The notes under the pieces were generated by a model. The model was not told the DNA's origin, did no database searches, and was given only the letters and a program-made list of their open reading frames with translations. Positions 5,537 through 56,654 of a stretch of 64,000 bases of DNA are shown piece by piece. Every line of letters begins with the position of its first letter. Position 1 is the first letter of the stretch. The DNA comes from Bacteroidales bacterium (GTDB taxonomy: Bacteria; Bacteroidota; Bacteroidia; Bacteroidales; Muribaculaceae). A program made the position numbers and the translations under genes. The stretch lies in the NCBI GenBank assembly GCA_044433325.1, contig JAWXTT010000001.1, forward strand, positions 1,470 through 65,469, in the 5' to 3' direction.

Positions 5537-6715
5537 ATGCGCATACTGTTATCAAATAAATTCTATTATCGTCGTGGTGGGGACTGCGTATGCACTATTA
5601 ATTTAGAGGAATTACTAAAGGAGCATGGTCACGAGGTAGCGATATTCTCGATGCAACATCCTGAGAATTTACCATCTAATTACTCTAAATATTTCCCATC
5701 AGAGGTTAGATTTAAATCCATTGGGGGGATATATAAAACCTTTACACGTCCATTTGGGAGCAAAGATGTCATCCAACGTTTCCAAGAACTTATTAATGAC
5801 TTTAAACCAGATATTATTCATCTACATAATATCCATACACAGCTATCCCCTATCATAGGTGAAGTTGCAGCAAAGAATGGTATTAAGGTAATATGGACAC
5901 TACATGACTATAAGCTGATATGCCCACGCTATGACTGCTTACGTAATGGAGAAGTGATATGTGAGGAGTGCTTCACAGATAAAAGCAAGGTACTTAAATA
6001 TAACTGTATGAAAAACTCTAAGATAGCTAGTAAGATAGCATATCGCGAAGCAATAACATGGAGCCGTGAACGACTTGAGGGTTTTACAACACATTTTATC
6101 GCTCCTAGCCAGTTTATGGCAGATAAGATGATACAAGCAGGTTTCTCGAAATCTAAGATAAATACTCTTTGTAACTTTATAGATATCGATAAAACCTTTA
6201 GAGAGGAATACGATAAGGGGGATTACTACTGTTTCATAGGTCGTCTTTCTCATGAAAAAGGGGTTAAAACATTGATTGAAGCGGCTAATCAACTACCATA
6301 CAAGCTAAAAGTAATAGGTGGTGGTGAGTTAATGGATGAGCTACGTGGGATTGCAAAAGCAAATATAGAGTTCGTTGGTTTCAAACAGTGGGACGAGATA
6401 AAAGAGATTGTAGGTAAAGCACGCTTTAGTGTAATTCCATCAGAGTGGTATGAAAATAACCCACTATCAGTTATTGAAGCTCAATGCTTAGGAACACCTG
6501 TACTAGGTGCTAAAATTGGAGGAATACCTGAACTTATTGAGAATAATATTAGCGGAATGATATTTGAAAGCCGCAACACAATAGATTTAAAACATGGTAT
6601 AGAAGCTATGTTTAAACAGAATTTTGATTATAGTGAATTAGCTAAAAACTCACAACATAGATATTCAGCATTAAATCACTATAATAATCTAATGAAGATA
6701 TACAATGAAGAGTAA
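5537..6715 (+). CDS. Glycosyltransferase family 4
   Basis: GRLSHEKGVKTLIEA, then an EX7E-type motif: EWYENNPLSVIEAQCLGTPVLGAKIGGIPELI. Confidence 0.8.
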   Translation: MRILLSNKFYYRRGGDCVCTINLEELLKEHGHEVAIFSMQHPENLPSNYSKYFPSEVRFKSIGGIYKTFTRPFGSKDVIQRFQELINDFKPDIIHLHNIHTQLSPIIGEVAAKNGIKVIWTLHDYKLICPRYDCLRNGEVICEECFTDKSKVLKYNCMKNSKIASKIAYREAITWSRERLEGFTTHFIAPSQFMADKMIQAGFSKSKINTLCNFIDIDKTFREEYDKGDYYCFIGRLSHEKGVKTLIEAANQLPYKLKVIGGGELMDELRGIAKANIEFVGFKQWDEIKEIVGKARFSVIPSEWYENNPLSVIEAQCLGTPVLGAKIGGIPELIENNISGMIFESRNTIDLKHGIEAMFKQNFDYSELAKNSQHRYSALNHYNNLMKIYNEE

Positions 6716-7790
6716 TATACCATCCCCAACAGATGCTAGTATTATACTAACATATCGCTGCCCTATGCGTTGTAAGATGTGTAATGTGTGGCAATTCCCT
6801 ACGGAGAAAAGTGCGGAGATTTCTGCCAAAGATTTAGAAACTCTACCTAAACTAAAGTTCATTAACTTAACAGGAGGAGAGCCATTTATCCGTGAGGATT
6901 TGGCTGATATTGTTGAAGAGTGCTACAAACACACTGAGCGTATTGTAATATCTACATCGGGTTGGTTTGAGGATAGAGTTATTGAGCTTGCTAAACGATT
7001 CCCTAATATAGGTATTCGCATATCTATCGAGGGGTTAAGCTGCAAGAATGATGAACTGCGTGGTCAAACAGGAGGCTTTGACAAGGGGTTACGCACCCTA
7101 TTAACACTAAAGAAGATGGGTTTAAAGGATATAGGTTTCGGTTGCACGGTTTCAAACAGCAACTCTAAGGATATGTTATCGTTATACCAACTAAGCCAAT
7201 CGCTAGGGATGGAGTTTGCGACAGCAGCTTTCCACAATTCATACTATTTCCATAAGAATGATAATGTAATCAGCAATAAGAGTGAGGTTACTCAAGATTT
7301 TGAGCAACTAATAGATTGGCAACTAAAGGAGAACTCACCTAAGAGCTGGTTCCGTGCATGGTTTAATATGGGATTAATCAACTATATCGAGGGGGGACGA
7401 CGTATGCTACCTTGTGAGGCTGGTTCTGCTAATTTCTTTATAGACCCATTTGGTGAAGTCTATCCATGTAACGGGTTGGAGGATAAATATTGGCAAAAGT
7501 CTATGGGCAATATTCATACAACACCTAACTTTATGGAGATTTGGGAGAGTGAACAAGCGCAAGAGGTGCGCGCCATGGTTCGCAAATGCCCTAAGAACTG
7601 TTGGATGGTAGGCACAGCTAGTCCAGTAATGCACAAATATATCAAATTTCCACTTAAATGGTCTATCCAGAATAAGCTACGTAGCATGCAGGGTAAATCA
7701 GCTTGCCTAGATAAAAAGTGGTGTGATGTTGGTCAAGACCCTACACAAGGAGATTTAAGGGAAGTTATAAAAACTGACCCTGGAAAATAA
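6705..7790 (+). CDS. Radical SAM enzyme with a twitch/SPASM-like C-terminal Cys motif, embedded in the glycan locus
   Basis: CxxxCxxC at YRCPMRCKMCNVW. C-terminal Cx12Gx4C (CEAGSANFFIDPFGEVYPC) followed by CPKNC. Overlaps the upstream GT gene by 11 nt. Confidence 0.8.
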   Translation: MKSNIPSPTDASIILTYRCPMRCKMCNVWQFPTEKSAEISAKDLETLPKLKFINLTGGEPFIREDLADIVEECYKHTERIVISTSGWFEDRVIELAKRFPNIGIRISIEGLSCKNDELRGQTGGFDKGLRTLLTLKKMGLKDIGFGCTVSNSNSKDMLSLYQLSQSLGMEFATAAFHNSYYFHKNDNVISNKSEVTQDFEQLIDWQLKENSPKSWFRAWFNMGLINYIEGGRRMLPCEAGSANFFIDPFGEVYPCNGLEDKYWQKSMGNIHTTPNFMEIWESEQAQEVRAMVRKCPKNCWMVGTASPVMHKYIKFPLKWSIQNKLRSMQGKSACLDKKWCDVGQDPTQGDLREVIKTDPGK

Positions 7791-7834
7791 CAACAAATTA
7801 CAAATTGGAGAATTTTTAAACAACCTAAAGTTAT

Positions 7835-8926
7835 ATGAAGATAGTTGTTACAGGTACACGCGGCATCCCCAATATTATGGGGGGAGTAGAAACTCACTGT
7901 GAGGAGCTATTCCCTCGCATTGCTAGTTCAGGTAAATACGATGTAACAGTTATTAGACGTACTAGTTATGCAAATGATAATCTTACATCTTATAAAGGTG
8001 TAAATCTTGTTGATATCAATACTCCAAGACAAAAATCATTTGAGGCAATTATACATACCTTTCGCGGTGTAGTCCGTGCTAAAAGATTAAAAGCTGATAT
8101 CGTGCATCTTCACGCCGTTGGTCCATCTATTGTAACTCCCATCGCTCGTTTATTAGGATTAAAGGTGGTATTTACACATCATGGGTTTGATTATGACAGA
8201 GATAAATGGGGTTTTGTAGCTAAATCAATAATAAAACTAGGGGAACGTTTCAGCGTTAAGTATGCTACTGAAGTAATAGTTATATCTGATGTTATCAAGA
8301 GTCATATTGAGAAGAAATATAACCGTACTGATAGCACATTAATATATAATGGTGGCTCTGATACCAATAAATGTGAAACTCCTGAATATTTTAAGGAGCT
8401 AGGTATTGAAAAGGGTAAATATATATTAGCTATGTGCCGCTTTGTTCCTGAGAAAAATTTACACCATTTGGTCGAGGCTTTTAGTCGCTTAAATCGCACT
8501 GATTGTAAATTAGTAATTGCAGGTGATTCAGACTTTGAGGATGAATACTCTACCAATCTAAAACAGTTAGCTAAAGATAATGGTGCAATATTAACAGGAT
8601 TCGTTCGTGGTGATAAACGTGATTCGCTACTTACCAATGCACGCTGTTTTGTACTTCCATCCTCACATGAGGGGTTGCCAATAGCTCTTTTGGAGGCTAT
8701 GAATTATGATTTACCTGTTATCGTAAGTGATATCCCTGCTAATTTAGAGGTGGGTTTAGAGCAATCTGTTTACTTTCAAATGGGAAATATTGATGAGCTT
8801 ACTAAAAAATTAGATATTGAGCTAAATCGAGATTTCAAAAACATCAAATATGATATGAGCAAATACAATTGGGATACAATTGCAGCACAAACAATGAATG
8901 TTTATTCAAAAATATTGAAAAAATAA
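7835..8926 (+). CDS. Glycosyltransferase family 4 (DUF1972-type N-terminus)
   Basis: N-terminus MKIVVTGTRGIPNIMGGVETHCEEL is typical of DUF1972 GTs. C-terminal part has CRFVPEKNLHHLVEAF and SSHEGLPIALLEAMNYDLPVIVSD. Confidence 0.8.
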   Translation: MKIVVTGTRGIPNIMGGVETHCEELFPRIASSGKYDVTVIRRTSYANDNLTSYKGVNLVDINTPRQKSFEAIIHTFRGVVRAKRLKADIVHLHAVGPSIVTPIARLLGLKVVFTHHGFDYDRDKWGFVAKSIIKLGERFSVKYATEVIVISDVIKSHIEKKYNRTDSTLIYNGGSDTNKCETPEYFKELGIEKGKYILAMCRFVPEKNLHHLVEAFSRLNRTDCKLVIAGDSDFEDEYSTNLKQLAKDNGAILTGFVRGDKRDSLLTNARCFVLPSSHEGLPIALLEAMNYDLPVIVSDIPANLEVGLEQSVYFQMGNIDELTKKLDIELNRDFKNIKYDMSKYNWDTIAAQTMNVYSKILKK

Positions 8927-15556: not shown

Positions 15557-15608
15557 ACACCCTTTGAAAGTTTAGAATACACTCTAAACTTTTAAATAAT
15601 CGCCTAAA

Positions 15609-15675
15609 GTTTTGGTTGTACTCTAAACTTCCACTCAAATTATGAAAAGTTTAGAGTACAACCAAAACATTTTTT
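15609..15675 (+). terminator. Intrinsic terminator after trpA (very long stem)
   Basis: A perfect 22-bp stem (15609-15630 pairs with 15647-15668), a 16-nt loop, then A and T6 at 15670-15675. Confidence 0.75.
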
Positions 15676-16078: not shown

Positions 16079-17281
16079 ATGACAAGTTTAAAGGTGAAAT
16101 TTAGGCCATCTACAATAGAAGGGAAAGAGGGAATCATATACTATCAAATTATTCATAACAGAGTGATAAGACAACTTAGAACTACTTATAAAATTTTCTC
16201 AGAAGAGTGGGACGATCTCTTATCACAGGTTGTTTTATCAATATATCGAGAGGATAGAACTTCACATATCTTAACCATTAAAGAGAGTATCAAAATGGAT
16301 CTAAAAAGATTGTCTAAAATAATAGAATTATTGAATAATGCAGGTACATATACTTGTGAGGATGTTATTTCTGCATTTGAGATGTCAATAAAAGGAGAAA
16401 TGCTCTTTAATTATATGCAGAAAATGGTAAACCGATTGATACAACTTCGCAAATATAGGACATCAGAAACATATAAAACTACTCTTAATAGTTTTATTCG
16501 GTTTAGAAAAGGGGAAAATATTATGATTACAGATATTTCCTCAGATTTAATAATGGATTATGAAGCCTATCTAAAAGGAGAAGGATTAACTATGAACACA
16601 GTCTCATTCTATATGCGGATACTTAGAGCCGTATATAATCGAGCCGCGGAGGACGATTTAGTTGAACAAAAATTCCCTTTTAAAAAGGTATATACAGGGG
16701 TGGATAAGACTATTAAACGAGCGCTTCCTCTTAAAGATATAAAGCGGATTAAAGAATTAGATTTATCACTTGCACCAGAATTAATATTTGCACGTGACAT
16801 GTTTCTATTTAGTTTCTATACACGTGGCATGTCATTTGTTGATATGGCATATCTTCAAAAAAAGGACTTAGTAAATGGAGTTATAACATATCGTAGGCGG
16901 AAAACTGGACAACTTCTACATATCAAATGGGAATGTTGTATGCAAAAAATTTTAAATCTTTATCCTCCATTAGAAACCAAATACTTATTGCCAATAATCC
17001 GAGATAAGGATAAAAATGACCGAGCACAATATATAAACGCACTAAACAAGGTTAATAATAAACTAAAAAAGATTGGAGAAATGATAGGACTTACAATGCC
17101 ATTAACCCAATATGTTGCACGACATTCTTGGGCATCAGTTGCTAAGAGCAAACACATACCTATCGCTGTAATTTCAGAAGGGATGGGACACGATTCAGAG
17201 ACAACTACTCAAATATACTTAGCTTCACTTGACACATCAATTGTTGACAAAGCTAATAATTTAATCCTCAAGTCGCTCTAA
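16079..17281 (+). CDS. Tyrosine site-specific recombinase (Bacteroides-type integrase with N-terminal Arm DNA-binding domain)
   Basis: N-terminus KVKFRPSTIEGKEGIIYYQIIHNR is typical of Bacteroidetes integrases. The C-terminal catalytic region has ARHSWAS and GHDSETTTQIYL (nucleophile Tyr). Confidence 0.85.
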   Translation: MTSLKVKFRPSTIEGKEGIIYYQIIHNRVIRQLRTTYKIFSEEWDDLLSQVVLSIYREDRTSHILTIKESIKMDLKRLSKIIELLNNAGTYTCEDVISAFEMSIKGEMLFNYMQKMVNRLIQLRKYRTSETYKTTLNSFIRFRKGENIMITDISSDLIMDYEAYLKGEGLTMNTVSFYMRILRAVYNRAAEDDLVEQKFPFKKVYTGVDKTIKRALPLKDIKRIKELDLSLAPELIFARDMFLFSFYTRGMSFVDMAYLQKKDLVNGVITYRRRKTGQLLHIKWECCMQKILNLYPPLETKYLLPIIRDKDKNDRAQYINALNKVNNKLKKIGEMIGLTMPLTQYVARHSWASVAKSKHIPIAVISEGMGHDSETTTQIYLASLDTSIVDKANNLILKSL

Positions 17282-17305
17282 ATAGTCCTATTCTGTTTTT
17301 TTAAC

Positions 17306-17328
17306 ATCTCTATCCAAGAGATAATTTT
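17306..17328. repeat. Inverted repeat, left arm (ATCTCTATCCAAGAGATAATTTT)
   Basis: Exact reverse complement of 17472-17494. It contains an internal dyad, ATCTC...GAGAT. Confidence 0.9.
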
Positions 17329-17334
17329 ATAATA

Positions 17335-17366
17335 CAAAATTACGGAATATATTATAATATAACAAA
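17335..17366 (-). promoter_or_regulatory. Bacteroides-type promoter inside the invertible core, currently facing the recombinase gene (OFF for the operon)
   Basis: The minus strand reads TTTG-(20 nt)-TAATTTTG (plus-strand CAAA at 17363-17366, CAAAATTA at 17335-17342). After inversion it would map to about 17434-17465 on the plus strand, roughly 70 nt upstream of the ATG at 17537. Confidence 0.6.
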
Positions 17367-17471
17367 TAATCGTAAAAATTATTTTTACACTAACTCTACA
17401 TGTCACATTAAGTTTAGTAAAAAAAATATATAAAATGGCTTTTAACTGCATTTTAAGCGTGATTATTGTTG

Positions 17472-17494
17472 AAAATTATCTCTTGGATAGAGAT
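17472..17494. repeat. Inverted repeat, right arm (AAAATTATCTCTTGGATAGAGAT)
   Basis: Exact reverse complement of 17306-17328. Confidence 0.9.
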
Positions 17495-17536
17495 AATAAC
17501 ACATTTAAATAAATTTATTTAATAACCACAACTAAT

Positions 17537-18670
17537 ATGATACAAAAACCAAAGACAACACGAATTATAGCATTGATGCTAACATATTCTTGTAATCTAA
17601 ACTGTGTGTATTGTTTTGAAAAGCACAAATCAAATGATCCTTCGAAACGTATGACATTTGAAATTGCCAGAGAAATAATAGAAAAAGAGTTCTCGGCATT
17701 TCAAGAATCAGGAGATAAAGGGTCACTAAAAGTTGACTTCTTCGGAGGTGAACCACTTCTTAATTTTGGACTTATTAAAAGACTGGCAGAATGGATTTGG
17801 GAACAAGATTTTAAAATAAACTATGTACTATCAGTAACGACAAACGGCTCATTACTCAATGACAACATGAAAGAATGGTTCACTGAACATAAAGAACATT
17901 TTAGATTAATACTGTCAGTAGATGGAAATGAGCATATGCAAATGAACAATAGAGGGTGTAGCCAAGAAGCTCTTCCTATTGATTTCGTAAGACAAACTTG
18001 GCCAGACCTATATCTTAAGATGACAATGGGACGTGATTCCTTACCTACTTTTGCGGATGGTTTAATATACCTTTGTGAAAAGGGTTATAATGTATCTGGA
18101 AGTATTGCTATTGGTGAAAAATGGACACATGATGACGCTATGATATATAAGGAGCAACTTGAAAAAATAGCTGATTATTATCTATCACATCCAAATGTCA
18201 CACCAACTCACCTTTTTAACAGAATCTGGGGTGAGATGCTAAATCCTGTATATGAAACTGAGTTACCTCCAAAAAATTGTGGGACAGGGACTACAATGGC
18301 TGCATACGATGTTGATGGATATCCATATCCTTGCCACTTATTTCTTCCAATCGTACACGGTAAAGAGATTAGAGAAGACCTGAAAAAAATTGATTTTTTT
18401 GATAAGGAAAGGATGATTGATGAAGAATGTAGAAAATGTGGACTATTAAAAATATGTAGAACCTGCTATGGATATAACTACATTGAGAGGGGTGATGTGA
18501 ACAAGAGAGATAAATGCTTATGCGAAATGTTACTTGTAGAGGCAATTGTAATCAGCGCATTCCAAATTAATTACCTAATGCAAAGAAAAGATAGCTTGGA
18601 TTCAGAACAGTTGTTGGCACTTAAAGCAGCTATTCGCTGTTATGAGACATACAAAGATTTTAAATTCTAA
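17537..18670 (+). CDS. Radical SAM / SPASM-domain peptide maturase
   Basis: CxxxCxxC at residues 19-26 (YSCNLNCVYCFEK). The C-terminus has Cx12Gx4C (CGTGTTMAAYDVDGYPYPC), then CRKCGLLKICRTC and a later CLC, which is the SPASM auxiliary-cluster pattern. Immediately upstream of three small Cys-rich ORFs. Confidence 0.85.
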   Translation: MIQKPKTTRIIALMLTYSCNLNCVYCFEKHKSNDPSKRMTFEIAREIIEKEFSAFQESGDKGSLKVDFFGGEPLLNFGLIKRLAEWIWEQDFKINYVLSVTTNGSLLNDNMKEWFTEHKEHFRLILSVDGNEHMQMNNRGCSQEALPIDFVRQTWPDLYLKMTMGRDSLPTFADGLIYLCEKGYNVSGSIAIGEKWTHDDAMIYKEQLEKIADYYLSHPNVTPTHLFNRIWGEMLNPVYETELPPKNCGTGTTMAAYDVDGYPYPCHLFLPIVHGKEIREDLKKIDFFDKERMIDEECRKCGLLKICRTCYGYNYIERGDVNKRDKCLCEMLLVEAIVISAFQINYLMQRKDSLDSEQLLALKAAIRCYETYKDFKF

Positions 18671-18705: not shown

Positions 18706-18849
18706 ATGAAATTAGAAAATTCATTACTTGAGCAAGCGAACGAGTTGCTAAATGTTAATCAAGAGAACATCTCAAAGACTGAGACTGAAACAGTTTCTGT
18801 AAGTTGCTCTGGATGTGGAGCAGGATGTTCTGGTATAGTCGGAGACTAG
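18706..18849 (+). CDS. RiPP precursor peptide 1 (47 aa): MKLENSLLEQANELLNVNQENISKTETETVSVSCSGCGAGCSGIVGD
   Basis: ATG at 18706, TAG at 18847-18849. Not in the ORF track because it is under 60 aa. First of three tandem paralogs with a helical leader-like N-terminus and an invariant Cys/Gly/Ser core. Confidence 0.8.
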   Translation: MKLENSLLEQANELLNVNQENISKTETETVSVSCSGCGAGCSGIVGD

Positions 18850-18875
18850 TTACTAACATTAAATTGACAACAATT

Positions 18876-19022
18876 ATGAAATTGGAAAATTCATTGCTTG
18901 AACAAGCTAATGATTTGCTTGATGCAAATCAAGAGAGTATTGCTAAAACAGAGATTCCAAGTAGCATTAGTTGGAGTTGCTCTGGGTGCGGAGCTGGTTG
19001 CTCTGGAATTGTGGGAGATTAA
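18876..19022 (+). CDS. RiPP precursor peptide 2 (48 aa): MKLENSLLEQANDLLDANQESIAKTEIPSSISWSCSGCGAGCSGIVGD
   Basis: This is the in-frame ATG at codon 25 of the listed 18804..19022 ORF. The core is identical in amino acids to copy 1 despite 9 synonymous codon changes. Confidence 0.8.
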   Translation: MKLENSLLEQANDLLDANQESIAKTEIPSSISWSCSGCGAGCSGIVGD

Positions 19023-19061
19023 GAGCTCCTTAGTTATTAACATTTAATAAACCTTTGAACT

Positions 19062-19205
19062 ATGAAACTTGAAAATTCATTACTTCAGCAGGCTACAGAA
19101 CTGCTAAATGCGAATCAAGAAAACATTTCAAAAACACTTACAGAAACAGTTTCAGTAAGTTGTTCTGGATGTGGAGCAGGATGCTCTGGTATAATCGGAG
19201 ACTAA
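19062..19205 (+). CDS. RiPP precursor peptide 3 (47 aa): MKLENSLLQQATELLNANQENISKTLTETVSVSCSGCGAGCSGIIGD
   Basis: ATG at 19062, TAA at 19203-19205. Not in the ORF track. The core differs from copy 1 only by V to I. Confidence 0.8.
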   Translation: MKLENSLLQQATELLNANQENISKTLTETVSVSCSGCGAGCSGIIGD

Positions 19206-19222: not shown

Positions 19223-19288
19223 GTGAGTCCTCTAACCTTTGAATGTTACTACAATCAAAGTAGGGGACTCGCTTTATAATACTTTTTT
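19223..19288 (+). terminator. Imperfect hairpin plus U-rich tract between the precursor genes and ycaO (possible partial terminator or processing site)
   Basis: 19223-19242 pairs with 19255-19272 (18 pairs including 2 G-U, two 1-nt bulges, 12-nt loop). It is followed by TTTATAATACTTTTTT, which runs into the ATG at 19289. Confidence 0.4.
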
Positions 19289-21097
19289 ATGAAACCTTAT
19301 AAATCTAAATCTCCTCTTGAAACTATAAATAATATTAGAGGGATATTATCAGATATCGGTATTTTTACAACCGAAAATCACATATCATATAGCGATCTTT
19401 TTTGCTCTTGTCGAGTTATTATTGATGACAATATTCAGGGACTTGACATTGGAACAAATGGAAAAGGTATGAATACACAATATGCTTTAGCTAGTGCATA
19501 TGGTGAGATGATGGAACGACTTCAGAATAGAATGTTAGGTTTTGCTGTGATGAAGTTTACAACATCTAGCGTTTTGAAAGATAATCCAAATTTAGAACCT
19601 CTTTATAATATGCTTTCAGCTGAGGGTCTCGTTGGTGATTTCAGGTATTATCCAGACGAGAAGGAGTATTCAGTCTCAAAATCAGAGCTATTAAAACAAG
19701 TTGAAAAATTCTTACCCAATATTTATGGTGTAGATAATGAATCTATACTAAAAAGTAATAAGTATAAATTAATTGAAGCTCCATTTTTCAATGTAAATTC
19801 ACAAAAAGTGGAAAATGTACCTTTATTCTTATTTAGACTAGCAGCAAGTTCTACAGGACTTTGTGCTGGGAATACACCTCAAGAGGCTATACTGCAAGGC
19901 TTGAATGAAATATTTGAAAGATATGTTCTCCAAAGATTATATGTAGAAAAAGTAACACCTCCTACAATTCCCGCAACATATTTTAAAGGAACAAATATAG
20001 TAGCACGACTTGAAAAATTACGACTAACTAAGAACGTTTATTATGAAATAAAAGATTGTTCTCTTGATGGGAAATACCCTGTTATTGGATTACTCCTAAT
20101 TGACAGATCGAATAATACATATGCCTTTAGACTTGGGGCTGACGCTAGTCCTATCATTGCACTTGAAAGGTGCTATACCGAGGCTTTTCAAGGAGTTAAA
20201 GATATCAAGAACCATTTTAGACCAATTAACTTTAATGATTCTTTCGATATTAAACTTGAACACGACAATAATGTTGTAAATGGATCGGGAAAATTCCCTA
20301 ATGAACTATTTCTAAATAAACCATCATATGATTTTAAAGGTTTTGTCTTTAGTGGAAAAGAGTCTGATGAAGCTGAATTAAAATACTATATAAAACATAT
20401 AGAAAATTTAGGATACACTACGTATGTCCGAGATAATTCATTCTTAAACTTCCCTGCATATACTATATTTATACCTGGTCTTTCAGACATATCGGGAGAA
20501 TTGTTAGATTTCTACCAACATTTAGAAGATGCTAATTGCACTTATTCTGCGTTAAAACCTGCATATAATATAAAAAGCCTTAATGATGACGAATTAGTGA
20601 ATTATGCAGCAACTATTGAGAATAATAGTTCTAACAATATATCTCTATTCCCTTATTATATAGGACTACACAATAACATCAATAAGCATCTACTATTGAT
20701 GGGGATCTATTTCAAAACTGGGAATATTCACAAAGCATATAAAAACATGTCCATCTTTTTGACTCATAATGAAAGAACTGGCATATCACAATCAAATTAT
20801 TACTATGCAATTAGAGATTATCTATATTGGAAAAGCAAAGATAAACATGCTAATACTATCACGAGTATTTTATCCAGATTCTATGGTGAGAAAATAGCAG
20901 ATGAAGTAACAACAGATTTAGCAGATCCATCTAAAATATTAGATAATTTTAAGTTCCCTCAGTGTTTTGATTGTCAGAATTGCCCAGCTAGATCAGAGTG
21001 TAAATTCATTGAAATGGTACGAATGGAAAACCGTATCCAAAAAATATTTAAAAGTAATTTGAAAGATCAAATTAATCTAGAAGAGATATTTAAATAG
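19289..21097 (+). CDS. YcaO-domain protein, stand-alone E. coli-YcaO-like architecture (602 aa)
   Basis: N-terminal region ...DIGTNGKGMNTQYALASAYGEMMERLQNR matches the YcaO ATP/Mg-binding signature (compare E. coli NGKGATKKAALASALGEYFERL). It has a long helical TPR-like C-terminal half, and the C-terminus is ...LEEIFK with no PxPxP motif. Confidence 0.8.
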   Translation: MKPYKSKSPLETINNIRGILSDIGIFTTENHISYSDLFCSCRVIIDDNIQGLDIGTNGKGMNTQYALASAYGEMMERLQNRMLGFAVMKFTTSSVLKDNPNLEPLYNMLSAEGLVGDFRYYPDEKEYSVSKSELLKQVEKFLPNIYGVDNESILKSNKYKLIEAPFFNVNSQKVENVPLFLFRLAASSTGLCAGNTPQEAILQGLNEIFERYVLQRLYVEKVTPPTIPATYFKGTNIVARLEKLRLTKNVYYEIKDCSLDGKYPVIGLLLIDRSNNTYAFRLGADASPIIALERCYTEAFQGVKDIKNHFRPINFNDSFDIKLEHDNNVVNGSGKFPNELFLNKPSYDFKGFVFSGKESDEAELKYYIKHIENLGYTTYVRDNSFLNFPAYTIFIPGLSDISGELLDFYQHLEDANCTYSALKPAYNIKSLNDDELVNYAATIENNSSNNISLFPYYIGLHNNINKHLLLMGIYFKTGNIHKAYKNMSIFLTHNERTGISQSNYYYAIRDYLYWKSKDKHANTITSILSRFYGEKIADEVTTDLADPSKILDNFKFPQCFDCQNCPARSECKFIEMVRMENRIQKIFKSNLKDQINLEEIFK

Positions 21098-21099
21098 TA

Positions 21100-21822
21100 A
21101 TGAAAACAAATTACCATACACACACAAAGCGGTGCAAACATGCTTTTGGAGAGGATGAGGAATACGTAAAAAGTGCTATAAAGGGAGGATATAGCATATT
21201 GGGGTTTGCTGATCATACCCCATGGCCATATTTAAAGAAAAATAGTTCAAGTATTAGAATGGAGACAAATCAGCTACCTGAATATGTTTCATCGATAATA
21301 TTTCTAAAAGAACGATTTGAGAATCAGATTGATATTAAAATCGGTTTAGAATGCGAATTTATTGAGAGATATACAACTTGGTTATCAGAGGTAAAGGAGC
21401 AATACAAATTAGACTATCTTCTTTTTGGCAACCACTATCCGTTTGGGGAGAGAGGCCCTCTTTACACATCAAAAGACCATAGGCTATATACGCACAGAGC
21501 CATAAAGGCTATGCAAACAGGAATATATGACTGTATAGCACATCCAGAGATATTGTATAGAGGGTCAGAAATAAGCTCTGTAGATAAAGAGTATTTTAGA
21601 GAGCTATCTCGTGCTGCAAAATATTTGAATATTATTATGGAGTATAACACCTGTTATAAATTCAAGCGAGATCTCTGGGAGATTGTCGCACAAGAGGATT
21701 GTAAAGTGATTATTGGGTTAGATGCACACAAGCCTGAGACTCTTGAAGATGATTCAATATACACAATGGCATTAGCAAATATGAAATCTGTCGGTATTGT
21801 ACCTATAACAAATTTGAAGTAG
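21100..21822 (+). CDS. PHP-domain metal-dependent phosphoesterase (HisJ/histidinol-phosphatase family)
   Basis: N-terminal MKTNYHTHTKRCKHA (HxH metal motif), GFADHTP and GLDAHKP. Confidence 0.7.
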   Translation: MKTNYHTHTKRCKHAFGEDEEYVKSAIKGGYSILGFADHTPWPYLKKNSSSIRMETNQLPEYVSSIIFLKERFENQIDIKIGLECEFIERYTTWLSEVKEQYKLDYLLFGNHYPFGERGPLYTSKDHRLYTHRAIKAMQTGIYDCIAHPEILYRGSEISSVDKEYFRELSRAAKYLNIIMEYNTCYKFKRDLWEIVAQEDCKVIIGLDAHKPETLEDDSIYTMALANMKSVGIVPITNLK

Positions 21823-21827
21823 AGATT

Positions 21828-22565
21828 ATGGGAAATAAAGGGTATAAAAAAGAGATGTGCAATATTTATAGCAAAGAGGGTCAATTCAACTTTGAACAAA
21901 ATCTATTTGAAAATTTTACAAAATATAGCAATGAACATAATATAGTTTACCGAACACATACAGATTTGGGCTGTGGTCTAGGTTATTTTACAGAGTTGAT
22001 GAATAGTCGTGGCATTACTAGTCGTGGTATTGATTTGTCAGAGACTATGATTGAAATGGCAAAATCTAAATTTAGCAACAATTATTATGTTGGAGATATT
22101 TGCAACGTCAAATTACCTAATCCTGTTGATTTAATAACTTGTAATCACAATACAATAAATCATTTGAATACACTTGATAAATGGAAGGAATTTATGCTTA
22201 ATGCCTATTACAATTTATCACAAGAGGGGTATCTGTTGTTTGACTTCAATACGATAGATTATATAGAGACAGTAAGCCACTTTAGTTATAGTCAGTTAAA
22301 CCCCAATCTAGACATCATAAAAATTGTGATACCCAATAATAACTATCAATTACAATTTAGATATATTTTCTATAGTAAGCAGAAAAATGAGTATTACACT
22401 AAAAATATAGAGTCGATTTTAATAACATGTTTTAAAACAACAGATATATTTAAACTAATTACCGAATGTGGATTTAATATACATACCACATGGGATAATC
22501 AATTTAATGAATGCCAGATAGATACAAAAACAATTAGATTTTATATTTTGGCAAATAAACGATAA
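21828..22565 (+). CDS. Class I SAM-dependent methyltransferase
   Basis: Motif I DLGCGLGYFTELM, followed by GIDLSETMIEMA. 245 aa. Confidence 0.75.
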   Translation: MGNKGYKKEMCNIYSKEGQFNFEQNLFENFTKYSNEHNIVYRTHTDLGCGLGYFTELMNSRGITSRGIDLSETMIEMAKSKFSNNYYVGDICNVKLPNPVDLITCNHNTINHLNTLDKWKEFMLNAYYNLSQEGYLLFDFNTIDYIETVSHFSYSQLNPNLDIIKIVIPNNNYQLQFRYIFYSKQKNEYYTKNIESILITCFKTTDIFKLITECGFNIHTTWDNQFNECQIDTKTIRFYILANKR

Positions 22566-22668: not shown

Positions 22669-23541
22669 ATGAAAAACTACAAATTTAATTGGGGAATTAT
22701 CCCCAAAAACAAAGAAGATTTATCGATACTTGTTATAGGCAATAGCTTTTCTTATCAGGTTTTCGGTTTTTGGAATTCGGATATTTTTGTACCCGGAGGA
22801 ATGATTGAGAACTCTACTCATAAGGGTATATATCAGGATTATATTGCTGTTGGTGATCAAACCTATGATAGATGGCTGTCTGACATAGAGAATAAAACAA
22901 CTAATTATTATAATTTAAAAGATAAACTCAATGAGCGACACTGGGACATAATTTGTATGTTGAATACATCTGCTAATTGGGACCCACAACATAACTACCC
23001 ACTGATAGAAATGTTTGCGCAATGGATAAGAGATAATAATAGTAATAAAGATGTTGCCTTTTTTATTTATGCTTCGCCTTCAAGACCTGGAGCTTGTCCC
23101 AAAAATATATACTGTGATAGCACAAAAGAGTTTGAGTTAATAAATGAGGGGTTCCGTACTCTCTCAACAACATATAATATCCCAGAATCAAGAATAATTC
23201 CGGGATCTACTGCTATGCAATATTTACGAAAAACATATCCACAACCAGACGATAAAGAGCTAACAATAGACTATCTACATCCCCAATTCGGATTACCTAT
23301 TTTAGCGACAGGTATAACAAGCTTTATGACAATTATAGGACAAGTGTTCGATAATATTGATTTTGACTGTATCTCTAAAAATATAGTTAGTAACTACAAA
23401 GATAATGATGAATGCAATTTATCTAAGTCAACCCCAAAAGATTTACTTCTTGAAAGCACATTTTTCATAAATATTGATGATAGTAATAGAGCTTATGCTA
23501 TCTCTGCTGCAAAATATGCATTAGCAAATAAATTTAAGTAG
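22669..23541 (+). CDS. SGNH/GDSL-like hydrolase-fold protein (DUF4886-like), tentative
   Basis: The N-terminal block ILVIGNSFSYQ resembles the DUF4886/SGNH block I. Otherwise uncharacterised. Confidence 0.4.
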   Translation: MKNYKFNWGIIPKNKEDLSILVIGNSFSYQVFGFWNSDIFVPGGMIENSTHKGIYQDYIAVGDQTYDRWLSDIENKTTNYYNLKDKLNERHWDIICMLNTSANWDPQHNYPLIEMFAQWIRDNNSNKDVAFFIYASPSRPGACPKNIYCDSTKEFELINEGFRTLSTTYNIPESRIIPGSTAMQYLRKTYPQPDDKELTIDYLHPQFGLPILATGITSFMTIIGQVFDNIDFDCISKNIVSNYKDNDECNLSKSTPKDLLLESTFFINIDDSNRAYAISAAKYALANKFK

Positions 23542-55331: not shown

Positions 55332-56654
55332 TTATATATTAAAAGCAGACTTAATTTGGTCAACGTAATCTAGTTTCTCCCATGTGAATAGTTCAACATT
55401 CATTAGTTTTTCCCCTTCATATTTTGATTTGAAATGTTTTTCAACCACTTGAGGAGTACGACCCATATGTCCGTATGATGCTGTTTCTTCATATATAGGG
55501 TTACGAAGTTTTAAACGAGTTTCGATAGCATTAGGGCGCATATCAAAAATCGCCGCCAACTTTTCAGCAATCTCAGAGTCATTACACTCTACATTAGCAG
55601 AACCATAACTATTTACATATAAGCTAACAGGTTCAGCAACACCTATGGCGTAAGCAACCTGAACCAATATCTCATCAACAACACCTGCCGCAACAGCATT
55701 TTTAGCAATATGACGAGCCGCATAAGCCGCTGAACGGTCAACCTTAGATGGATCTTTACCAGAGAAAGCACCACCACCATGCGCACCCTTACCACCGTAA
55801 GTGTCAACAATAATCTTACGACCTGTCAAGCCAGTATCACCATGAGGACCTCCAATAACGAATTTACCTGTTGGGTTAACATGCAGTATCACTTCATCAT
55901 CAAATAACGCCTGCAATTGTGCCGAGAGTTTCGCTTTAACACGTGGGATAAGAACACTCTTAACATCATCATAGATACATTGTAACATCTTAGTATCAGC
56001 CTCAGCGATAGCCTCAGCAGATTCATCCGCTGGTTTCACAAAGTCATCATGTTGTGTACTAATAACTATTGTGTGAATACGCTCAGGCTTATTACTGCCA
56101 TCAGCATACTCAATAGTTACTTGGCTCTTCGCATCAGGACGAAGGTATGAGCGTGTTTCGCCACTCTCTGTGGTGTAAACCATCTCCCTCTCTTCACGTC
56201 TAATCGCTGCAAGTTCTATTAATAGTTGATGTGATAAATCCAATGATAGAGGCATATAGTTAGCAGTTTCATTACTAGCATAACCGAACATCATACCTTG
56301 GTCACCAGCACCTTGTTCCATTTTAGACTCACGATCTACACCGCGGTTAATATCTGCTGATTGCTCATGAATGGCTGATAGCACACCACACGAGTCAGCA
56401 TCAAATTTATATTCGCTACGATTATATCCAATACGATTAATTACACGGCGCGTCACCTCCATTAGGTCAACATAGGCGTTAGATTTCACCTCACCAGCCA
56501 CAATTACCTGTCCAGTTGTTACTAAAGTTTCGCAAGCCACCTTTGATTCAGTATCAAAAGCAATAAATTCATCTAATAGAGCATCACTAATTTGGTCAGC
56601 AACCTTATCAGGATGTCCCTCAGACACAGATTCAGATGTAAATAAATAACTCAT
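55332..56654 (-). CDS. metK: S-adenosylmethionine synthetase
   Basis: [30 protein letters not shown] and [16 protein letters not shown]. Confidence 0.97.

Follow-up and report, generated by a model that had tools for sequence, protein, structure and literature searches.

Do the three short open reading frames (ORFs) that lie in tandem between a radical S-adenosylmethionine (radical SAM) gene and a YcaO-like gene in a Muribaculaceae genome encode peptides and, if so, what kind of product would they give? The question is raised by a 64,000-nucleotide stretch of DNA from a member of the Bacteroidales (hereafter the window; assembly GCA_044433325.1, contig JAWXTT010000001.1, positions 1,470 to 65,469, to which all window coordinates below are relative, counting from its first letter). 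An earlier note on the window had described the ORFs as translated, selected peptides with a conserved and probably modified core. It is concluded here that selection acts strongly on the peptides at the level of the protein, and that they are very probably precursors of peptides that are synthesised on the ribosome and modified after translation (RiPPs) acted upon by the adjacent radical SAM enzyme, with YcaO as an additional enzyme. The genes concerned are as follows.

17537-18670, + strand: predicted radical SAM/SPASM maturase, 377 amino acids (Pfam Radical_SAM, Fer4_12)
18706-18849, + strand: precursor copy 1 (c1), 47 amino acids, MKLENSLLEQANELLNVNQENISKTETETVSVSCSGCGAGCSGIVGD
18876-19022, + strand: precursor copy 2 (c2), 48 amino acids, MKLENSLLEQANDLLDANQESIAKTEIPSSISWSCSGCGAGCSGIVGD
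19062-19205, + strand: precursor copy 3 (c3), 47 amino acids, MKLENSLLQQATELLNANQENISKTLTETVSVSCSGCGAGCSGIIGD
19289-21097, + strand: Escherichia coli-type YcaO, 602 amino acids (Pfam YcaO, 1.4e-40)

Three tandem ORFs with a common layout

All three ORFs were found on the + strand where the earlier note had placed them, and its account of why they are easily overlooked was confirmed. The genes c1 and c3 are absent from the mechanical ORF list because they are shorter than the usual 60-amino acid limit. In that list c2 begins at an upstream TTG (18804) and is given as a 72-amino acid product; its real start is the ATG at 18876, at which its orthologue in a related locus (L211, see below) also begins. 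A 60-amino acid cut-off would therefore list the over-extended c2 alone.

Each peptide consists of a leader of approximately 25 residues, a short linker and a C-terminal core of 14-17 residues. The leader MKLENSLL(E/Q)QA..LL..NQE.I.K is common to c1, c2 and c3, the linker diverges (TETETVSV, TEIPSSISW and TLTETVSV, respectively), and the shared core SCSGCGAGCSGI(V/I)GD terminates in C-x2-C-x3-C-S-G-I-V/I-G-D; these features, and the lack of a GG leader-cleavage motif in any of the three copies, are as previously described. In the set of close homologues, leader positions M1, K2, L7, A11, E20 and I22 are invariant. The spacing of L7, A11 and L15 is i, i+4, i+8, and the conserved residues L7, A11, L15, N18 and I22 share one face, so that the leader is probably helical. 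The peptides thus combine a recognisable leader with a conserved, substrate-like core, the two-part conservation that is characteristic of RiPP precursors.

Selection acts on the peptides and not on the DNA

Codon-level comparisons were made for the three copies (Nei-Gojobori counts) and for their relatives. Over the last 15 codons of the core, c1 and c2 differ at nine codons and every change is synonymous (9.0 synonymous differences over 11.3 sites, as against none over 33.7 non-synonymous sites), which reproduces exactly the nine differences listed in the earlier note. The chance of obtaining nine of nine synonymous changes, if changes fell at random over sites, is approximately (11.3/45)^9 = 4e-6. 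In the linker of the same two copies, the proportions of non-synonymous (pN) and synonymous (pS) differences are about equal (0.55 and 0.52).

It is apparent that the synonymous signal holds in relatives as well. A metagenome-assembled genome from the Rikenellaceae (GCA_047171925, locus L211) has all three copies, their order unchanged, one-to-one orthologous to those of the window, and the comparisons of the window copies with these orthologues gave pS values of 0.51-0.60 and pN values of 0.02-0.06. Comparison of c1 with the single-copy homologue at locus L001, the enzymes of which are merely 45-69% identical to those of the window, revealed 14 synonymous and no non-synonymous differences over 17 core codons. 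In the single-copy peptides of L001 and L006 the leader is approximately 55% identical to that of the window, but no difference is seen in the 18 C-terminal residues. When nine sequences are compared, every one of the 17 core third positions is variable, and the Ser codons of the core swap between the AGY and TCN families with Ser retained. With such variation at third positions and such changes of Ser codon family, the core is conserved as protein and not as DNA.

The earlier note had named two outcomes that would count against its proposal. Neither was obtained: no frameshift or stop codon was seen in any homologue, and conservation tracks the protein rather than the nucleotide sequence. The codon data and the homologues together bear out its description of translated, selected peptides composed of a leader, a freely varying linker and a conserved core, which is predicted to be modified. 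These results show that the peptides are under strong selection at the protein level.

A peptide family linked to radical SAM genes

Homologues were sought by several routes. A word-indexed peptide search supplied the closest nine clusters, and a search of 1.84 billion representatives with a HMMER profile gave 13 matches, 11 of them real; the other two were false positives that arose from low complexity, in proteins approximately 1,900 amino acids long. Most of the new peptides were mined from the DNA beside YcaO or radical SAM homologues, and several of these had not been called as genes. A degenerate DNA pattern for CSGCGAGCSG, run over genome contigs, yielded, among the matches listed, GC-rich chance matches from Actinomycetota and Pseudomonadota and no true member.

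The resulting 35 distinct peptides are all 44-48 amino acids in length, and all of them end in C-x2-C-x2-3-C-[SAD]-[GD]-[ITK]-[VI]-G followed by up to two residues, often Asp. The three Cys residues and the final Gly are invariant, and Val is replaced by Ile solely in c3 of the window. The C-terminal Asp was considered as an essential target, by analogy with Asp88 of ribosomal protein S12 (RimO/YcaO) and with the Cys-Asp links of PapB; this candidate was rejected, as 11 of the 35 peptides end without Asp. Neither Pfam nor NCBIfam has a model that the peptides match at cut-off, and in the source records they are labelled 'hypothetical protein' or left uncalled. One uncalled example is the peptide MKVTDALMAEVNEMLAGNACAIAGAKRVVSIGCSGCGLGCDGIVGG, which lies between the radical SAM and YcaO genes of locus L217 (approximately 6175-6315) and shows that the family is under-annotated.

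Every peptide of known context adjoins a radical SAM gene whose product is at least 46% identical to that of the window. Conversely, every sampled radical SAM protein at or above that identity has a family peptide beside it, the exception being a decayed locus of Bacteroides ovatus; this count leaves aside P0140, which is 93% identical to the radical SAM protein of the window. The order of the genes varies (rSAM-peptide-YcaO, YcaO-rSAM-peptide and rSAM-YcaO-peptide, where rSAM is the radical SAM gene), and this permutation with co-occurrence kept is strong evidence for a functional unit. In some loci, peptide and radical SAM genes are found with no YcaO gene within 5 kb:

L215, 5001-6311: radical SAM gene and peptide
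L218, 5001-6337: radical SAM gene and peptide
L219, 4595-6319: radical SAM gene and peptide

The existence of such loci indicates that the radical SAM enzyme is the obligate partner of the peptides and YcaO a frequent second enzyme. The pair in L219 adjoins the genes for ribosomal proteins L21 and L27.

Three accessory genes recur in the family; their products are a 70-amino acid helix-turn-helix (HTH) protein, a small zinc-ribbon membrane protein and an M42 aminopeptidase. No transporter, dedicated protease or immunity gene was consistently linked to the family loci sampled. The small membrane protein (91-126 amino acids, with transmembrane helices and, at its C-terminus, a CxxC…CxxC zinc ribbon) has no family match and is absent from the window; it was found at the following positions:

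L001, 12025-12300
L130, 4080-4457
L217, 3294-3674
L219, 4595-4957

Other arrangements were also observed. Locus L213 (832-9809), the YcaO of which is 74% identical to that of the window, encodes a membrane protein, two SPASM radical SAM proteins, a precursor (…SVSCSMCGAGCSGIVGD), a B12-dependent type of radical SAM protein and an M42 peptidase. Immediately upstream of its YcaO gene is a MiaB/RimO-like methylthiotransferase gene, an arrangement that recalls the old link between YcaO and RimO in E. coli. In one lineage, ferritin, rubredoxin and Fur-like genes lie downstream of the cluster. The decayed B. ovatus system, in which no precursor was found, is as follows:

L129 (GCA_024789005), 5685-8903: HTH gene, intact YcaO gene and a radical SAM gene broken into three ORFs

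The radical SAM/SPASM enzyme

Alignment of 22 homologues showed that the CX3CX2C motif (C19, C23 and C26) is invariant, as are the seven Cys residues of the SPASM domain (C248, C266, C298, C301, C307, C310 and C329). The enzyme therefore has the CX3CX2C motif and the complete seven-Cys SPASM domain that are found in maturases of ranthipeptides and sactipeptides. Its best NCBIfam matches are to the ranthipeptide maturase PapB (139.8 bits, cut-off 340), the CXXX-repeat maturases (121 bits) and the SCIFF maturases (96 bits, cut-off 425). All 64 NCBIfam matches are below cut-off, and no named maturase family (PapB, SCIFF, CXXX-repeat, CcpM etc.) is reached. In the wider clade, 284 matches were obtained, the 120 best-scoring clusters being at least 45% identical, and only generic names are attached to them.

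The best match in the Protein Data Bank (PDB) is CteB (5wgg, E = 2e-26), aligned over CteB residues 94-437. The alignments to CteB and to the SCIFF model both begin at position 94, and no PqqD-like ORF was found in the low-GC island that contains the cluster (see below), either adjacent to the gene or as a fused domain. For these reasons the enzyme is concluded to lack the N-terminal RiPP recognition element (RRE) that CteB possesses.

The window system resembles the ranthipeptide/SCIFF systems in its short precursors with a Cys-rich C-terminal core and in its radical SAM enzyme, the SPASM domain of which has all seven Cys residues. It differs from them in the scores of this enzyme, which are far below the cut-offs (140 versus 340 and 96 versus 425 bits), in the usual presence of YcaO in the cluster and in the core itself: C-x2-C-x2-3-C-S-G-I-V-G fits neither the CX3D pattern of freyrasin nor the SCIFF pattern.

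The YcaO enzyme

The best NCBIfam match of the YcaO protein is YcaO_for_S12 (166 bits, cut-off 700), and its score against the model for the thiazole/oxazole-modified microcin (TOMM) subfamily, TIGR03604 (TOMM/SagD), is 42.1 bits, the cut-off being 219. It matches E. coli YcaO (EcYcaO; PDB 4q84) at 21-22% identity. An AlphaFold2 model (mean predicted local distance difference test score, 91) was compared with known structures using Foldseek, which returned template modelling (TM) scores of 0.74-0.77 to EcYcaO (4q86), as compared with 0.34-0.45 to LynD and TruD (LynD, 0.44) and 0.35 to McbD. Its ATP/Mg motifs, ALASAYGEMMERL and GLCAGNTPQEAILQGLNEIFERYV, are intact and can be aligned with those of EcYcaO, so that both the full-length architecture of EcYcaO, including a C-terminal TPR-like domain, and its ATP-binding motifs are represented.

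The protein also carries a tail, P-x-C-F-x-C-x2-C-x5-C (residues 557-571, approximately 20957-21001; C559, C562, C565 and C571), which lies outside the sequence match to E. coli YcaO. The four Cys residues are invariant in 22 aligned homologues. Of 69 members of the wider Bacteroidota clade, 54 have the tail, in a scan that left out the YcaO of locus L187; one sub-clade is missing two of the Cys residues. Zinc and an Fe-S cluster are candidate ligands.

EcYcaO thioamidates ribosomal protein uL16 at Met82-Gly83, and the group to which it belongs is strongly acidic (isoelectric point, pI, approximately 4.4), the non-acidic members being situated in putative RiPP clusters (Rice et al. 2026, PMC13063428). 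The window enzyme shares the two-domain fold of EcYcaO. It differs not only in sequence and in its extra Cys4 tail but also in its pI, which is 6.14 (5.0-8.6 among clade members), and in its context, since precursors and a radical SAM gene flank it. The substrate of EcYcaO is a ribosomal protein, whereas that predicted for the window enzyme is a 47-amino acid peptide encoded next door.

Comparison with the itf system

A parallel among Bacteroidales RiPP clusters is the itf cluster of Bacteroides thetaiotaomicron, which was reportedly characterised by Clark and Seyedsayamdost in 2022. According to later summaries, that cluster comprises a precursor (ItfA), a YcaO (ItfB) that makes an amidine, acting at the last peptide bond, and a radical SAM enzyme (ItfD) that forms a Trp-Ile C-C bond; the precursors have a GG leader and C-terminal I-T-F and are accompanied by a PCAT exporter and a TonB transporter (PMC11002830, PMC10352776). 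Both systems are Bacteroidales RiPP clusters that combine a SPASM radical SAM enzyme with a YcaO-like enzyme, which in itf acts, and in the window may act, near the C-terminus of the peptide. The window system is set apart from itf, as the latter is described, by the lack of a GG motif and of a transporter and by its C-terminus, IVGD.

At locus L187, a 49-amino acid ORF (1461-1610) with a GG motif and C-terminal …QTF is situated just upstream of a YcaO gene whose product is 36% identical to that of the window. This locus is probably an itf-like sister system, and the pairing of such a peptide with such a YcaO suggests that itf-like systems form a sister group. Areas of Bacteroidales genomes that combine radical SAM and YcaO genes have been counted in bulk (PMC10352776). 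A literature search with the core motif returned no relevant paper; an earlier depiction in the JACS 2022 radical SAM atlas or in Fig. S33 of PMC13063428 is possible. The peptides thus appear to constitute a RiPP family, with radical SAM and YcaO maturases, that is so far uncharacterised.

Alternative explanations

The repeats might not be coding at all, and might instead represent a regulatory or RNA element in tandem, or ORFs that arose by chance in repeated DNA. The units are indeed tandem direct repeats, 67-83% identical in DNA sequence, and two of the three ORFs are under the usual gene-calling length. A non-coding element would not, however, be expected to vary at all 17 core third positions with the amino acids fixed and the Ser codon families switched, nor to remain intact as an ORF in 35 distinct homologues. 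No Rfam family matches the precursor region, and an internal palindrome in c1 and c3, considered as an RNA element, was rejected, its nucleotides not being conserved in the L211 orthologues. The codon-level comparison refutes the non-coding explanation, to which practically no credence is given. The peptides might alternatively be canonical TOMMs, in which a YcaO cyclodehydratase would convert SC, GC and CS into the defining thiazol(in)es, and it was to microcin B17 that the earlier note had likened the core. Part of that analogy stands: a YcaO-superfamily gene, of which the earlier note had made no use, is adjacent, and the core is rich in Gly, Ser and Cys and, as in TOMM precursors, in Cys, Ser and Thr overall (SCSGCGAGCSG). 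In addition, c3 gives a weak match (17.9 bits, cut-off 37.5) to the thiazolyl peptide precursor model BerA (NF033401), a model to which c1 and c2 give no match. The remainder of the analogy is not supported. The YcaO belongs to the wrong clade, as judged by its TIGR03604 score and its EcYcaO-like fold and domain layout; neither an E1-like/Ocin-ThiF (McbB-like) partner nor a flavin mononucleotide (FMN)-dependent, McbC-like dehydrogenase was found among the island ORFs or in the Pfam listings of related loci; and the constant partner of the peptides is the radical SAM enzyme, members that lack a nearby YcaO retaining the same Cys pattern. In favour of a TOMM, YcaOs that form azolines without a partner are found in other classes of RiPP. 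With three of its four defining features absent, a canonical TOMM is considered highly improbable.

A further alternative concerns the function of the product and not its biosynthesis: that it is an intracellular cofactor-like or metal-binding peptide, following the logic of pyrroloquinoline quinone (PQQ), mycofactocin or the bufferins, with a redox or metal centre formed from CxxCxxxC...VG. The spacing CxxCx2-3C resembles that of metal-binding motifs. Moreover, the core is near-invariant while the enzymes have diverged to 45-69% identity, as is typically the case for cofactor precursors and seldom for antibiotics, and the absence of a consistently linked exporter, protease or immunity gene is in keeping with this idea, as are the ferritin, rubredoxin and Fur-like genes mentioned above. 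The latter are, however, confined to one lineage, and no dedicated redox partner enzymes co-occur. Carriage on an element with integrase and relaxase genes and a patchy distribution are also difficult to reconcile with a cofactor, and the three-fold copy number and a hairpin attenuator (see below) suggest a high-output product. On balance, such a function is judged unlikely.

The preferred reading, that the three ORFs encode RiPP precursors for the adjacent radical SAM enzyme and YcaO, has points against it as well. Three lineages, represented by four loci (L215/L216, L218 and L219), have no YcaO gene within 5 kb, so that the YcaO step is not universal across the family. The sub-cut-off scores of the radical SAM enzyme indicate that its reaction could differ from thioether formation, and every chemical step proposed below is drawn from homology. 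Pfam and NCBIfam searches revealed no transporter, protease, immunity gene or RRE in the island. The genes for a phosphoesterase and a methyltransferase that follow YcaO are unique to the window locus and are possibly unrelated cargo. Finally, a scan for sigma-70-type promoters gave no excess over the expectation from shuffled sequence, and no exact copy of the Bacteroidetes -7 motif TAnnTTTG was found on the + strand upstream of the radical SAM gene or of c1.

Proposed maturation pathway

A pathway consistent with these data can be suggested. The leader would dock on the enzymes, and the radical SAM enzyme, by means of a 5'-deoxyadenosyl radical, would join the thiols of the three invariant Cys residues to carbons of acceptor residues, giving up to three S-C bridges of the sactionine or ranthionine type, plausibly onto the C-terminal I/T-V-G segment. 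This proposal is made because CteB and PapB, the nearest characterised maturases, form thioethers; it is a serious possibility but a tentative one. The Cys residues are, at any rate, more likely to be thioether donors than thiazole precursors.

YcaO would use ATP to phosphorylate a backbone amide oxygen, which a nucleophile would then displace. The nucleophile could be sulfide, giving a thioamide, a route that would be plausible in the sulfide-rich gut; ammonia, giving an amidine; or the thiol of a neighbouring Cys, giving a thiazoline, and azoline formation by this enzyme is thus possible. The Val-Gly amide near the C-terminus is the favoured site, in view of the actions of EcYcaO at Met-Gly and of ItfB at the last peptide bond, and of Val-Gly being the sole invariant feature other than Cys; a thioamide or amidine there is nevertheless rather doubtful. 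In the window only, the phosphoesterase and methyltransferase may add tailoring steps. Leader removal and export would proceed through unlinked functions, although some relatives have an M42 aminopeptidase gene linked to the cluster. The product may act in antagonism or in signalling, or as a peptide with metal or redox activity.

Combined, these suggestions would describe a new RiPP class of gut and rumen Bacteroidales, in which precursors of 44-48 amino acids with C-x2-C-x2-3-C-S-G-I/T-V-G cores are acted upon by a SPASM radical SAM enzyme that has no RRE and by a Cys4-tailed YcaO of the E. coli type to give a thioamide or amidine within a thioether-bridged scaffold, with a conserved, possibly intracellular, metal- or redox-related role. 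Taken as a whole, this picture is speculative and is thought somewhat unlikely to hold. If it is true, the radical SAM enzyme would need leader recognition of a kind so far undescribed, and the near-invariant core in exporter-less loci would imply that the product is not a diversifying antibiotic.

RNA elements and the promoter region

The precursor genes are divided from the downstream enzyme genes by the following element.

19223-19288, + strand: RNA hairpin (19223-19272) and, after it, a U-rich tract reaching the YcaO start codon

The hairpin has a minimum free energy of -29.7 kcal/mol (z = -5.95), and none of 200 shuffled sequences was equally stable. A simple terminator scan missed it, the loop exceeding the limits of that scan. 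In six other loci, hairpins with a U-run, of unrelated sequence, are found after the precursor gene or, where there are several, after the last of them. The element is a probable partial terminator or attenuator situated after the structural genes. The placement of the hairpin is that expected of an attenuator by which a RiPP operon maintains more precursor mRNA than enzyme mRNA.

An imperfect inverted repeat of 50 nucleotides (17279-17328 and 17472-17521; 76% complementary) spans the region between an integrase gene and the radical SAM gene. The promoter of the cluster would be expected in this region (17279-17521); a consensus promoter was not found there. Elsewhere in the window, a SAM-II riboswitch (RF01726; 56731-56789, - strand; 66 bits, gathering score 44) lies upstream of a 440-amino acid ORF (55332-56654, - strand).

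Genomic setting and neighbouring genes

The cluster is part of a compact set of + strand genes, extending from the integrase to a DUF4886 gene, that is placed between the trp operon and gltBD. The G+C content of this island is 0.27-0.35 over approximately 15.9-23.7 kb, versus 0.37-0.41 in the flanks. In addition to the genes listed above, it contains the following.

16079-17281, + strand: tyrosine integrase (Pfam Phage_int_SAM_5, Phage_integrase, Arm-DNA-bind_5), the leftmost gene of the low-GC island
21100-21822, + strand: PHP-family phosphoesterase (HisJ-like; Pfam PHP, 1.5e-13), 2 nucleotides after YcaO
21828-22565, + strand: class I SAM-dependent methyltransferase (Pfam Methyltransf_11/25), 5 nucleotides after the PHP gene
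22669-23541, + strand: DUF4886 protein, the last gene of the set

The integrase is 69% identical to that of L211 and 43% identical to that of L130 (Parabacteroides). In both of those loci, the orthologous integrase gene is preceded by MobC and relaxase genes, upstream of the cluster, which indicates that the cluster rides on an integrative mobilisable element. No convincing direct repeats that might represent attachment (att) sites were found flanking the island, and no tRNA gene was found in the window. Three copies of a 27-nucleotide palindromic unit lie downstream of trpA and before the integrase gene (15567-15672), AAAGTTTAGA..TCTAAACTTT, which could be stacked terminators or the attachment region of the island.

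The PHP gene is probably co-transcribed with YcaO. Its product scores under cut-off against all the NCBIfam histidinol-phosphatase models, and the methyltransferase gives weak, below cut-off NCBIfam matches to BioC and to a daptide methyltransferase. The PHP, methyltransferase and DUF4886 genes were considered as pathway genes that define the family, and were rejected as such, since no homologue of any of them was found in any other family locus sampled. They could serve for tailoring in this lineage alone or be unrelated cargo of the island; the methyltransferase is possibly a tailoring enzyme peculiar to the version of the cluster found in the window.

Significance

The locus constitutes a well-supported lead for genome mining, known from its genes alone. 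Two features of the enzymes are unusual, namely a SPASM maturase that lacks an RRE and a Cys4-tailed enzyme of the EcYcaO type. Such a set of substrates and enzymes bears on the roles of E. coli-type YcaO proteins outside ribosome modification, and on leader recognition by RRE-less SPASM radical SAM maturases. The three-copy array, with its saturated synonymous signal, also provides a clean teaching case for the detection of unannotated small genes.

The family is common in metagenomes of gut and rumen Bacteroidales, comprising at least 120 clusters of radical SAM proteins at an identity of 45% or above. Gene callers overlook most of its structural genes, with the result that the clusters are annotated just as 'radical SAM protein' and 'YcaO-like protein'. 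Given their carriage on integrative mobilisable elements, these clusters may aid strain-level competition or fitness in the gut.

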